Virus record (IMG/VR): IMGVR_UViG_3300017752_003808
Span: 1-31,319 of that record
DNA length: 31,319 nt
Source of the DNA: a virus
Lineage: Duplodnaviria; Caudoviricetes
Strand: one strand, 5' to 3'
The position numbers and the translations under genes are program-made. Positions 27,805 through 31,319 of the stretch are shown piece by piece. Below the pieces are notes generated by a model that was not told the DNA's origin, ran no database searches, and saw only the letters and a program-made list of their open reading frames with translations. Each line of letters begins with the position of its first letter. Positions within the stretch are counted from its first letter, which is position 1.

Positions 27805-27851
27805 GATTTGCACGAATGCCCGCTAAAATGGATGCATATGCAATAACTACC
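27805..27851 (+). repeat. 47-bp conserved upstream element, copy 4 (class B, no hairpin; head of right-arm array)
   Basis: GATTTGCACGAATGCCCGCTAAAATGGATGCATATGCAATAACTACC, identical to copy 2 in inverted orientation. Confidence 0.95.
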
Positions 27852-27906
27852 ATACCAACCAATCCACAAACAACTTGATAGACAAAAAAAACGCAACCCA
27901 CTAACG

Positions 27907-28848
27907 ATGATGTCCTGCCAGAGTATCGCACCTCGCCAACCGAAGAAGGAGATGAAGGGGAGAGAGCAAGTCTTTCTCGCAGACTTTGAGAGGGAGCGCG
28001 ACCCGAATGTCTGTAATAGCATAGTGAAATACACAGGTAAGGACAGGACCATTGATGTCCTGAGCAAGATGCCCCAAGACATTGGAGATATGATAGGTAA
28101 GTTGATACTCCACAACCAACTGATGAGCGGTCAGGGCAATGCCCTTATGACCAGGAAGATTATGTCTTGGTTGGGCGGACACCAATGCTTTGAGGAATGG
28201 TCTGGAAACATCCCGAAGCAAACCTACTTCCTTCCACACAATCGCCTGCCTGCTACAATTTCCACTCGTTCCTCTGCGCCCTGCCACTTCCTTCCCTTCA
28301 CCATCTATACCTATACGAATGATACCAAGAAATCCTTTGAGGTGATGGTTCCACAATGGTGGATTAAGATTTGGTATAAGGGTCGCCAGCAAGCAGTGAA
28401 GTGCGCAAACTCTTGGGGATACGCTGAGGATACAGAGACCAACTGGTATGATGTTCTCAGTCGTGGAACACCGACGCTTGGTCAGTGGTGTTTCATAGCA
28501 GTCGCGCACAATAAGCACCCTAAGCATTGGCATCTGTCAATGGTGAGAGATACTAAGAAGTTCTATACCCCGAACGAACACAACCATATCCGAGGTTTCC
28601 CTAACTGCGACATTTCAGGCACCCGCAACAAACACGCACACAAGGATTATACTGAGATGTGTAAGGGTTTCGCTTACAAGGGGAGAGCGCCAGTCGCTTG
28701 GATAACTGCCAAGAAGACGGGTAAGTCCTATGACCCGAAGTGCTATTATAGTGAGGGAGATTATCTGGGCAACAAGACCAGAGGTATGAGAAGTATGAAG
28801 TTTGCTGAGAACCGATTTTGGTTTAGGAATGAGTATGGAATGTGGTAG
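27907..28848 (+). CDS. Hypothetical protein, possible N-terminal F-box-like motif, 313 aa
   Basis: Long ORF after element copy 4; VLSKMPQDIGDMIGKLI weakly resembles an F-box; Trp/Tyr-rich remainder. Confidence 0.75.
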   Translation: MMSCQSIAPRQPKKEMKGREQVFLADFERERDPNVCNSIVKYTGKDRTIDVLSKMPQDIGDMIGKLILHNQLMSGQGNALMTRKIMSWLGGHQCFEEWSGNIPKQTYFLPHNRLPATISTRSSAPCHFLPFTIYTYTNDTKKSFEVMVPQWWIKIWYKGRQQAVKCANSWGYAEDTETNWYDVLSRGTPTLGQWCFIAVAHNKHPKHWHLSMVRDTKKFYTPNEHNHIRGFPNCDISGTRNKHAHKDYTEMCKGFAYKGRAPVAWITAKKTGKSYDPKCYYSEGDYLGNKTRGMRSMKFAENRFWFRNEYGMW

Positions 28849-28929
28849 ATTTGTATTAATAGATTAGATTAGATTTTGTATTAATATCCATCCACCCAGG
28901 CATCCATACGCAACCAGCGGGCATAGTGC

Positions 28930-28976
28930 GATTTGCACGAATGCCCGCTAAATTGCGTGCATATGCAATAACTACC
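28930..28976 (+). repeat. 47-bp conserved upstream element, copy 5 (class A; hairpin 28916-28949)
   Basis: GATTTGCACGAATGCCCGCTAAATTGCGTGCATATGCAATAACTACC, identical to copy 1 in inverted orientation. Confidence 0.95.
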
Positions 28977-29076
28977 AACAGCAACTAATCCATAGATAGA
29001 CATAATAAAACGCAACCCACAGAACCTTCATAAATCTATATATAAAGACAAAACAAGTAGTAAGAGTAATAGCAAT

Positions 29077-29532
29077 ATGGCAACTCCAACTCCAATGGTT
29101 TCCTTCCCTCGTCCAGTGGCACTCATCACTGGCAAGTATCCCAGTTTCGTGGAGACAATAGAAGAAGAAGAGAGGATTACAATGGACTATGTCAAGAACA
29201 ACCCGCCCGTCGCCAAGGAGGCGGTCCAGCAGTTCATCGCTGGATACGATGGGTCCAATGAGTTCCTCAACATAATGAAGAATGAAGATAGCATCTTCAT
29301 CTCCCAGGCATACTGGGGATATGAGCAGATTTTCCAAGAAGATAAGATAATGGATAGGAAGAAGTGTAAGGTCATCGGCAACATCCTGAACGAATGGGGA
29401 GGCATTCATCTAATGAGGGCAACCTACTACCTGATTTGCTGGGATATGAAGAATGCTGATAGTATCCTCATAGGAGGATATGCTCGCCTCTTGGAGCATT
29501 ACTGGGACGAGATTGGAGAATGGATGGCATAG
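29077..29532 (+). CDS. Hypothetical protein, 151 aa
   Basis: ORF after element copy 5; C-terminal IGNILNEWGGIHLM..LEHYWDEIGEW motif of unknown function. Confidence 0.8.
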   Translation: MATPTPMVSFPRPVALITGKYPSFVETIEEEERITMDYVKNNPPVAKEAVQQFIAGYDGSNEFLNIMKNEDSIFISQAYWGYEQIFQEDKIMDRKKCKVIGNILNEWGGIHLMRATYYLICWDMKNADSILIGGYARLLEHYWDEIGEWMA

Positions 29533-29546
29533 ATAGACACTTGTAG

Positions 29547-29565
29547 AACCAGGACAACCAGGACA
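29547..29565 (+). repeat. CCAGG tandem motif variant (AACCAGGACAACCAGGACA)
   Basis: 15 bp after the stop of 29077-29532. Confidence 0.7.
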
Positions 29566-29639
29566 GAATTAATAAAAATAGATTAGATTAATAAATTGTA
29601 TTCCATTAATAGATTAGAAGCATTTGAGCGGGTGTTCGT

Positions 29640-29686
29640 GGTTTGCACGAATGCCCGCTAATTTGCGTGCATATGCAATAACTACC
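29640..29686 (+). repeat. 47-bp conserved upstream element, copy 6 (class A; hairpin 29627-29659)
   Basis: GGTTTGCACGAATGCCCGCTAATTTGCGTGCATATGCAATAACTACC. Confidence 0.95.
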
Positions 29687-29741
29687 AACAGCAACCAATC
29701 CATCTCCAAAGCATAACAAAAGCAAAAAAACACAACCAACG

Positions 29742-29987
29742 ATGACCAACGCAATGTCCAAGCACGCTATGGGGGTCTCCTTTGCCCCTAAGCACGCGCC
29801 AGACCTCCCGCCGAATGTGGCGTATATGAGTGAGAGTTGCCGAGCATCCTTTGAGAACAGGGGATACACTTGGAACCCCCAGCAGAACAACTGGGTAGAT
29901 AAGTGGGGGATGCCCCTGAGAATGGCGAAGCAGATAAAGTGCGAAGATGGAGAGAAGACTACCAAGGGGTCCTGCGGTTTCTATTAA
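29742..29987 (+). CDS. Small hypothetical protein, 81 aa
   Basis: ATG 56 bp after element copy 6, the same spacing and ACGATG context as after copy 4. Confidence 0.7.
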   Translation: MTNAMSKHAMGVSFAPKHAPDLPPNVAYMSESCRASFENRGYTWNPQQNNWVDKWGMPLRMAKQIKCEDGEKTTKGSCGFY

Positions 29988-30085
29988 TAGATTGTATGTA
30001 GAAATGAATAAATAGATAGTATCCACCTTGTATTAATACCATTCACACAGCATTAGAGAGAAAACGCAACCCAGCGGGTATTCGT

Positions 30086-30132
30086 GATTTGCACGAATAC
30101 CCGCTAAATTGCGTGCATATGCAATAACTACC
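30086..30132 (+). repeat. 47-bp conserved upstream element, copy 7 (class A; perfect 14-bp hairpin 30073-30105)
   Basis: GATTTGCACGAATACCCGCTAAATTGCGTGCATATGCAATAACTACC. Confidence 0.95.
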
Positions 30133-30254
30133 AACAGCAACCAATCCATATCCAAAGCATCACAAAAGCAAAAAAATACAACCCGAGCAACAGAAACACT
30201 TGTGCCAGTTCAGTCGGCAAGTCTCTCTACACTCTACTCTCTCCACCCAGCACT

Positions 30255-31265
30255 ATGGCGTGTGTCTCCAACAACCGCTTCTCCCTCACCATCACCGACA
30301 CCCACGCCTACTCGGCGATGGACTACGGCATTGATGGATGGTTGGACTGGGAAACCGACCCAACCACCTTCACCGAGGCGGACATCCGCGTCTCTATGGA
30401 GAACGCCAACCAAGAGGTTCTGGACGCGAACCTGGCGCTCGCTCAGGCACAAGCAGAGACCGAGCAACTCCACAAGAACCTCGCTGATATGCGCGCCCTG
30501 CTCAGCACCAGCAAGACCAAGACCAAGAAACCCAAGGCGGTTCCCAAGTATGTCTCCAATGCGGGGGCAAATGCCAAGGCACAGCGACGCCTCCAAGGCG
30601 CAGGTAAGTTGGAACCATTCCGCGCAGGCGGTTGCCGATGCCGAACCTGGGGCAATGGTCTCGGTTCTCAGTGCCACGCTAAGGCAAAGACCGATGGTTT
30701 CTGCAAGTCTCACTACGAAAAGGTGATGGTCCAAGGAAATGGTCTCTGGACTATGGGTTTCTACGACGAAACACGCCCAGAGGTATGGGGTGAAGAGAAT
30801 GCGGAGGGTCTCTGCCATCCAGTGCCAGGAGACCGCAAGGCAGGCAAACCGATGCCTTGGAAGATGGATGCTGAGACATTCGCTCAGGCATTTGCCGACC
30901 TCAACCGCTTGGACCAGGCGGGTCGTGTTGAGTTGGAACTCGTAGAAGCAGAGGGTTCTACCGACAGCGGTTCAGGAAGTGATATGGAGGTTGAGGATGA
31001 TGGAGATACTCTGCCATTCCCCGAGGATGAAGCAGAGGAGCGCGCTGAGGTAGAGCGTGTGCCTATGCCTGGTGATGATGATTTCGTGCGCCCAGTTGGC
31101 GAGCAGTTCCAGTTGGATAATGGTATGGTGTTGGAAGCAACTGAGAATGGTGCGCGTGTGGTGTCTCCGCCTGGCACTCCGCCTCTGGTTCCAGCAGAGC
31201 AAGATGACCTCATTGGAGCAGAGAGCGGTGATACAGCAGACAGCGGTGATGATGCCTACTACTAA
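30255..31265 (+). CDS. Coiled-coil + putative C3H zinc finger + acidic tail protein, 336 aa
   Basis: Heptad region (NQEVLDANLALAQAQAETEQLHKNL), basic linker, CRCRTW..QC..FCKSH, very acidic C-terminus; appears to be the GC-richest gene. Confidence 0.8.
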   Translation: MACVSNNRFSLTITDTHAYSAMDYGIDGWLDWETDPTTFTEADIRVSMENANQEVLDANLALAQAQAETEQLHKNLADMRALLSTSKTKTKKPKAVPKYVSNAGANAKAQRRLQGAGKLEPFRAGGCRCRTWGNGLGSQCHAKAKTDGFCKSHYEKVMVQGNGLWTMGFYDETRPEVWGEENAEGLCHPVPGDRKAGKPMPWKMDAETFAQAFADLNRLDQAGRVELELVEAEGSTDSGSGSDMEVEDDGDTLPFPEDEAEERAEVERVPMPGDDDFVRPVGEQFQLDNGMVLEATENGARVVSPPGTPPLVPAEQDDLIGAESGDTADSGDDAYY

Positions 31266-31319
31266 ATAGAAATAGAAATGCGCCCGCTTCCTCTTACAAA
31301 ACCAATAGACAATAACGCA

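Follow-up and report, generated by a model that had tools for sequence, protein, structure and literature searches.

We analysed a stretch of 31,319 bases (positions 1 to 31,319 of the IMG/VR record IMGVR_UViG_3300017752_003808, hereafter the window), which represents a ~31-kb virus with three tandem capsid-like genes. In this virus the same ~45-bp element leads seven genes, and four of its copies are fused to a hairpin. Comparison with related contigs showed that genes are shuffled between copies of the element. The shuffling is real, and the element is most likely a promoter/terminator cassette system resembling the promoter-early stem-loops (PeSLs) of T4-type phages, in a virus likely of eukaryotes (probability of about 0.63).

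The core of the element consists of two halves, TTTGCACGAATRCCCGCTAA-N6-TGCATATGCAATAACTA, also written TTTGCACNAATGCCCGCYAA-N6-TGCATATGCA. Each half was matched seven times in the window, compared with 0.00 and 0.19 matches expected by chance. The seven copies are listed below, with class A for copies that carry a hairpin and class B for those that do not.

3777 to 3819 (core) and 3777 to 3837 (with hairpin), minus strand: copy 1, class A, between the RING219 and primase-helicase genes
4613 to 4655, minus strand: copy 2, class B, head of the left array, with 49 identical bases in common with copy 4
10215 to 10257, minus strand: copy 3, class B, a lone core before a methyltransferase-like gene
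27807 to 27849, plus strand: copy 4, class B, head of the right array, a promoter-like core without hairpin (z +0.8)
28932 to 28974 (core), plus strand: copy 5, class A, with a hairpin (28916 to 28949) that overlaps the core, then TGCG and TGCATATGCA
29642 to 29684 (core) and 29627 to 29684 (whole), plus strand: copy 6, class A, with a 14-bp stem that includes two sense-strand G-U pairs
30088 to 30130 (core) and 30073 to 30130 (whole), plus strand: copy 7, class A, with a perfect 14-bp stem

Copies 1, 5, 6 and 7 fold as hairpins in which the 5′ arm pairs with the first half of the core (RNA z from −5.8 to −7.2), and in copy 7 a G-to-A change in the core is matched by a T in the 5′ arm. Copies 2, 3 and 4 do not fold (RNA z from +0.6 to +0.8). 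A preliminary description of this DNA had already reported copies 2 and 3 as hairpin-less and the head site of the right arm as unstructured.

The genes behind the element form a distinct group in base composition. Their GC content at third codon positions (GC3) is 0.44–0.70, the fixed primase and methyltransferase-like genes included, compared with 0.14–0.38 for 19 other annotated genes (a 20th small non-led gene was left out), which have AT-rich upstream regions, many ending in TATAAATG. Start codons lie at short, variable distances downstream of the core (15–23 nucleotides in several relatives). Lone hairpin-less cores precede the methyltransferase-like gene in five viruses (W, X, Y, Z and T, defined below) and a RING147 gene in Z and contig L098. 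We infer that the element-led genes are one expression class, expressed early, and that the core is likely an early promoter, probably for the host nuclear RNA polymerase. Rfam returned no match. The words ATTTGCAC and ATGCATATGCA occur in the core of all seven copies; we take them to be like octamer/MORE sites of POU transcription factors and GCCCGC to be like a GC box, resemblances that may hint at the host.

Scans with the core pattern recovered 23 and 40 stretches in viral contigs, 90 in metagenome contigs and none in bacterial and archaeal genomes, and the element was found only in this sub-clade. We refer to the window virus as W and to its relatives as X (contigs L002 and L042, treated as two halves of one virus because of their common terminal sequence), Y (L051/L022), Z (L087/L063), T (L072/L067) and D (L086/L096/L116). 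Most core proteins of the relatives are 35–95% identical to those of W. With A and B for the class of site and F for gene families, the arrays read as follows.

Right arm of W: B-F0-A-F1-A-F2-A-F3
Right arm of X: B-F5-A-F0-A-F2-A-F8-A-F3
Right arm of Y: B-F0-A-F5-A-F8-A-F3
Right arm of Z: B-F9-A-F10-A-F8-A-F11-A-F3
Right arm of T: B-F5-A-F11-A, where the contig ends (an F3-like start by eye)
Array of D, arm not known: B-F15-A-F16-A-F10-A-F17-A-F8-A-F22
Left arm of W and of contig L079: B-F5-A-primase
Left arm of X: B-F14-A-primase
Left arm of Y: B-F7-A-primase
Left arm of T: B-F8-A-primase

Both arms keep the layout of head site, gene, hairpin site and gene. Unit genes were gained and lost among the relatives, the order of F0 and F5 is swapped between X and Y, and F5 (RING) and F8 were found in either arm. 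Six gene families occupy more than one position or arm among these viruses, and each time they do so as complete units bounded by elements. The end genes, primase and ORF336, are constant, and genes outside the arrays keep a constant order save for a few gains and losses. The preliminary description had predicted that relatives would show gain, loss and reordering of genes between elements; all of these were observed, together with moves between the arms. Gene order was constant in near-identical strains (one other W-like, three Y-like, four Z-like and one X-like contig, and several partial ones), so the turnover looks slow. In L098, one unit holds three open reading frames (ORFs).

The element-led genes of W are the following.

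177 to 3662, minus strand: primase-helicase (PriCT_2 and DUF5906), last gene of the left array, position fixed
3893 to 4552, minus strand: RING219 (F5), a mobile unit gene, first in the left arm of W and L079, first in the right arm of X and T, second in the right arm of Y
9156 to 10154, minus strand: methyltransferase-like gene, which keeps its place in W, X, Y, Z and T, without a Pfam match
27907 to 28848, plus strand: ORF313 (F0), a mobile unit gene at position 1 in W and Y and position 2 in X, missing from Z and T and without a Pfam family
29077 to 29532, plus strand: ORF151 (F1), a unit gene not in the arrays of X, Y, Z and T, no Pfam family
29742 to 29987, plus strand: ORF81 (F2), a unit gene that X, L106 and L070 have as well and that Y, Z and T lack
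30255 to 31265, plus strand: ORF336 (F3), constant end gene of the right array (W, X, Y and Z), with a weak DUF5763 match below the cut-off

The four genes of the right array are co-oriented, one per unit, and the left arm reads head site, RING gene, hairpin site and primase, in agreement with the preliminary description.

The distribution of hairpins follows a strict rule. Among 67 distinct element contexts from the relatives, 37 fold and 30 do not. The folding contexts lie behind an element-led unit in 33 cases and behind another gene in none, with four unjudgeable, which bears out the earlier claim, restricting hairpins to sites behind element-led genes, for 33 of the 33 judgeable hairpin contexts. 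Non-folding contexts comprise 17 behind other genes, 12 unjudgeable and one behind a led gene, which turned out to be a longer hairpin (z −8.5). Comparison of the 37 hairpins indicates that the structure is under selection, because core position 8 covaries with its partner (G:C in 14, C:G in 10, G:U in eight, unpaired in five), G-U pairs account for 68 of the 561 predicted ones, and in 31 of the 37 the fold is more stable on the sense strand.

A hairpin also stands alone behind the gene led by copy 3, a feature that the preliminary description had missed.

8999 to 9036, minus strand: stand-alone hairpin with a C-UUCG-G loop, then TTTT and TGCGTGCA, no core (z −5.2)

The methyltransferase-like gene is followed by a hairpin, T-rich bases and TGCGTGCA, with no core, in five of five viruses (W, X, Y, Z and T). 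Outside cores, TGCGTGCA occurs eight times in these viruses, five times (once in each virus) behind a hairpin at least as stable as −19.9 kcal/mol; folds as good were found in 0.7% of 1000 random windows. The stand-alone stems have three different sequences, none related to the array stem, and those of W, Y and Z carry the C-UUCG-G loop, a stable RNA tetraloop. The stand-alone hairpin with TGCGTGCA is likely a bare 3′-end signal, and the hairpin with UGCGUGCA can be regarded as a putative RNA 3′-end signal (termination or cleavage). Most simply, class A would be the core with this signal superimposed on it, and class B the core by itself, because GCG stands ahead of the palindrome in 33 of 37 class A contexts but in only 2 of 30 class B contexts. 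An unlisted 51-aa basic ORF (window 8964 to 9119, plus strand) is convergent with the methyltransferase-like gene and overlaps its stand-alone hairpin; it is conserved in X, Y and Z and absent in T.

The spacers between units resemble their neighbours in the same genome. For 23 units in which both options were available, the closest trailer came from the same virus in 16 cases, from the same gene family in four and from neither in three; the corresponding numbers were 12, 6 and 5 for hairpin arms and 11, 4 and 8 for leaders. The trailer end of the W RING gene matches that of Y ORF313, and vice versa. A spacer of ~140 nucleotides is 96% identical between two Z units, and one is identical ahead of two unrelated D genes. 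Leaders of near-identical strains differ in short patches, one of which recurs in an independent run. These results suggest that spacers are homogenised within each virus and that the hairpin follows the virus, not the gene, a pattern that is likely the trace of homologous exchange and gene conversion. The comparison is suggestive, not final, because divergence could also blur a cassette signal.

Two contigs appear to be joined within the element. In L103, the right head of W is joined to the RING and primase genes, which belong to the left arm, within the 49 bases common to copies 2 and 4. In L059, 296 bases of the Z head (100%) are joined to a Y-type ORF313 unit (98.6%) within a 43-base common core, and this unit carries 15 private changes near the end of the ORF. 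Excised circles or skipped units were also considered; the one long joint listed (27857 to 29716) carries letters of the leader of copy 2, so it is no deletion. Of 21 holders, four supplied run contigs, and these break at each copy of the element.

According to the reading that we favour, the element would act as an early promoter for the gene behind it, and its hairpin form would be a promoter fused to the RNA 3′-end signal of the preceding gene. The near-identical spacers would serve as homology for gene swaps by homologous recombination and gene conversion. The arrays mirror each other and the genome is likely linear with one array at either end, so that inter-arm conversion or a double crossover could copy a gene into the other array with nothing deleted, which would fit the observed gene traffic.

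Several points weigh against this reading. The promoter and the terminator are putative, and so is the recombination route. Homologous exchange by itself leaves unexplained how a new ORF first gains its leader and trailer. The p-values of the 23-unit spacer comparison treat related pairs as independent, and L103 and L059 may be assembly chimeras. In W, X, Y and Z the stand-alone hairpin underlies an antisense ORF of 51–57 aa, which might help to preserve it, and it is free only in T and L110. The primase core of Z is degenerate and hairpin-less although a core-led two-gene unit lies upstream. The link between hairpin and GCG would equally arise from a fixed crossover at TGCA.

PeSLs are described from T4-type phages (RB49/phi1, PST/T4 and nt-1/KVP40; available text of PMC2839356 and PMC4122927). 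As far as these texts go, they share with the present arrays a repeated composite of promoter and G-T-containing stem-loop before mostly unknown genes, possible overlap of stem-loop and promoter, a small number of copies at core replication genes, and genes gained, lost and replaced between copies with no dedicated recombinase shown. The present system differs in belonging to a 31-kb virus likely of eukaryotes, with a 45-bp GC-rich core unlike a sigma-70 −35/−10 promoter, in its strict division into hairpin-less head sites and internal hairpin sites, in the fixed TGCGTGCA word behind the stem, and in its two mirror-image terminal arrays that trade genes. Promoter, terminator and circles have been demonstrated for PeSLs in phages, according to the same sources, whereas in our arrays promoter and terminator are putative; we regard the system as an analogue of PeSLs, not a member, and claim no sequence homology. 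In their 2010 Discussion, the PeSL authors saw no evidence beyond phages (PMC2839356). The arrays would extend the PeSL principle to a small virus likely of eukaryotes and suggest a concrete route, in which every early gene, flanked by standard spacers, forms a unit of its own within two gene-trading arrays. They also provide two precise signals for this group, a 45-bp putative early promoter and a putative 3′-end signal of hairpin and UGCGUGCA, both of which could point to host transcription factors and help to tell whether a giant-virus helper is needed.

The preliminary description had compared the arrays to an attI/attC system served by a tyrosine recombinase. In such a convergent integron, the recombinase would join class A sites, folded as single strands, to class B sites (crossover between TGCA and TATGCA) and so move one-gene cassettes; in a fuller form, self-expressing cassettes would move between mirror arrays, and the hairpin would be both RNA terminator and DNA recombination site. 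All 17 judged contexts behind non-led genes are class B, head sites stay class B whichever gene follows, TGCA is common to class B, class A and the stand-alone signal, and some hairpins have an outer stem and an internal loop (one has a longer top). As in integrons (available text of PMC5027507 and PMC3053210), W and its relatives have a head that does not fold, a hairpin behind each gene, units that mostly consist of a single co-oriented ORF and are gained, lost and reordered, and a tyrosine recombinase.

6288 to 7256, plus strand: tyrosine recombinase, common to the wider three-capsid group

The identification of this gene in the preliminary description was borne out by its predicted fold (predicted local distance difference test, pLDDT, 90.4), which is that of XerA, Cre and IntI alike. 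Foldseek gave XerA as the best match (E 9.5e-5) and also Cre. In structure comparison (VIA), XerA scored Z 12.9 (root mean square deviation, rmsd, 17.3; 241 aligned), and IntI (2a3v) scored lower than XerA and Cre (Z 10.2, rmsd 14.6, 235 aligned); a search against solved sequences matched only a designed repeat protein. The enzyme is probably active, because R157, K202, H311 and Y320 are conserved. As to the I2-helix insertion of the IntI subfamily, the spacing from K202 to R281 is 79 residues, near that of XerD (presumably 75) and not that of IntI1 (presumably 106). The recombinase is 71–83% identical among element-bearing viruses and belongs to a large family (349 matches). Of 80 recombinase loci, the five close ones carry the element and none of the 75 distant ones (30–36% identity) does, although many of the latter loci end before the genome does, and a strongly diverged element could have escaped recognition.

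Most of the remaining evidence does not support an integron mechanism. GTTRRRY has 57 matches in the window and none in a core or hairpin, and the recombinase gene is not adjacent to the arrays (20 kb from the right head at 27807, and three genes from the left head at 4655), both of which the preliminary description had given as caveats; array-less relatives have the recombinase too. Unpaired bases are absent from 27 of the 37 stems and vary in the others (1/1 in five, 1/2 in three, 0/1 in two), and no conserved extrahelical bases, which have a role in attC sites (PMC3053210 and PMC5027507, as far as their available text goes), were found in the 37 folded stems. Every unit gene has its own core and putative promoter, and lone cores lead fixed genes. 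The constant order in near-identical strains and the three-ORF unit of L098 are also unfavourable. An attC role is also disfavoured by the signal behind the methyltransferase-like gene, which is immobile yet has a hairpin and TGCGTGCA, with stems unrelated to the array stem, in all five viruses, cutting inside an antisense ORF in four of them. The array stems are G-U rich on the sense strand, which likewise speaks against this role. Furthermore, spacers are closer to others in their own virus than to those of their gene elsewhere, so the hairpin does not appear to travel with the gene or to be owned by a cassette as an attC site would be. Papers assign this class of enzyme to integration (bioRxiv 2022.07.28.501842 and 2026.06.19.733378, in the parts available). 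We therefore regard the integron as unlikely, and its fuller form as no less so. The other possibility raised in the preliminary description, a terminator-plus-promoter module, fits better; it does not exclude shuffling, and the two together amount to the PeSL model.

Two further explanations keep the promoter and terminator and differ in how genes are exchanged. The recombinase, the GIY-YIG endonuclease or stalling of replication forks at the hairpin might start recombination that homology then resolves. The virus encodes both enzymes, every internal spacer has a strong hairpin, and the PeSL authors do not decide this question either (PMC2839356, Discussion), but the L059 and L103 junctions lie at hairpin-less class B sites; such assistance is unlikely. 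Alternatively, the element could be a regulatory module only, with independent illegitimate insertions and losses, spacers homogenised later and no exchange at the element. Gene order is indeed stable within species, and the relatives are distant enough for exact breakpoints to have eroded. This explanation seems very unlikely given that six families recur at other positions or arms as whole units with the outside order kept, and that two contigs (L103 and L059) join inside the core.

Other systems show partial likeness to the PeSL-like arrays that we favour. In hairpin-directed polyadenylation of Mimiviridae, transcripts of a DNA virus of protists end at an RNA hairpin (PMC4402537, available text); the present hairpin differs in being rich in GC and confined to a single gene class, in having a fixed word behind it and in its overlap with the next promoter. 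Among small DNA viruses of eukaryotes, the Polisuviricotina have internal repeats at which exchange has been proposed to take place (bioRxiv 2026.10.13.758929, available text); those repeats bracket whole replication modules, whereas here single genes are punctuated and the primase stays put. We found no report of such arrays in Polinton-like viruses in open-access PMC and bioRxiv main texts, although genome maps in supplements may show them.

The gene content of W fits a three-capsid (Trimcap-type, or group X) Polinton-like virus. The ground for this assignment is the capsid block.

17641 to 22897, plus strand: three tandem capsid-like genes of 650, 433 and 521 aa

The 650-aa and 433-aa genes are paralogues (hhalign 93.2%, E 2.9e-7), and the 433-aa protein is close to clusters with Capsid_N on 12–15% of members. 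The 521-aa gene has a Capsid_N match (E 3.7e-4) that is under the cut-off, and profile comparison tied it to neither of the other two. The same block was found again beside distant recombinase homologues. The primase-helicase, recombinase and terminal repeats occur together in a ~30-kb genome, as in Trimcap viruses, with a packaging ATPase that we take to be one from its Walker A motif only. Other products include two RING proteins, a GIY-YIG nuclease, DUF5824 and DUF5754, and no viral poly(A) polymerase was recognised among the products of the window genome. The likeness to Trimcap / group X viruses covers three tandem divergent capsid-like genes, packaging ATPase, primase-helicase, tyrosine recombinase and a genome of ~30 kb (PMC7805220 and PMC11502894, with further accounts in bioRxiv 2026.06.19.733378 and 2026.05.28.728513; available text in each case). 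The group has been linked to marine stramenopile hosts (bioRxiv 2026.06.19.733378, available text), and the hosts here are likely marine single-celled eukaryotes, the present viruses being known to us only from metagenomes. The words cassette, integron and hairpin are absent from the searched main texts of the 2026 preprints.

The genome is likely linear with terminal inverted repeats, because both arms of X and of Y share terminal sequence and one run contig of the window virus extends the right end by 59 bases that match the left end. In X and Y, the terminal repeats start within the last codons of primase and ORF336 (L112 start, L001 end, L002 end and L042 end), so that two unrelated proteins end alike and inter-arm conversion would reach coding sequence. 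Contig L101 is a perfect 8.5-kb palindrome (centre near 4240), centred on window bases 6/7, and the window begins 6 bases beyond the centre. It is possibly a hairpin telomere or a head-to-head replication junction; none of four run contigs crosses the centre, and protelomerases gave low scores against the recombinase model (Z 5.2–5.5). A second, unrelated hairpin (window 12 to 58, minus strand, about −21 kcal/mol) lies ~120 nucleotides past the primase stop, adjoining the genome end.

The proteins encoded by the units are mostly unlike known families. Among 36 unit proteins of relatives, only RING fingers (four, near or below the cut-off) and one TET-associated glycosyltransferase family were recognised; the latter is F15 (PF20691, E 1e-13; L078:390-1151 and L089:186-938). 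ORF313 has six homologues, a model with pLDDT of 50.9 and no atlas match; for ORF336, 18 homologues were found and a locus search returned none. A role of the unit genes in host interaction would be a guess. The methyltransferase-like gene is so called from what we take to be FDPxAG and SPPY motifs. In L070 (124-576), a unit gene of 151 aa ends in a 56-aa piece like the helicase part of the primase-helicase (46%, E 2e-10), possibly a gene birth by capture. An additional class I methyltransferase gene of virus Y (L015:3922-4518) lies immediately beyond the right head site and is encoded on the other strand.

A second repeat, AACCAGGGCAACCAGGG (tandem CCWGG), lies mostly at gene 3′ ends in either orientation.

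112, 4664, 10277, 13357, 19593 and 29547, plus strand: AACCAGGGCAACCAGGG repeat
10374 and 27522, minus strand: AACCAGGGCAACCAGGG repeat

Distant relatives carry similar short repeats ending in GGGGTAAA.

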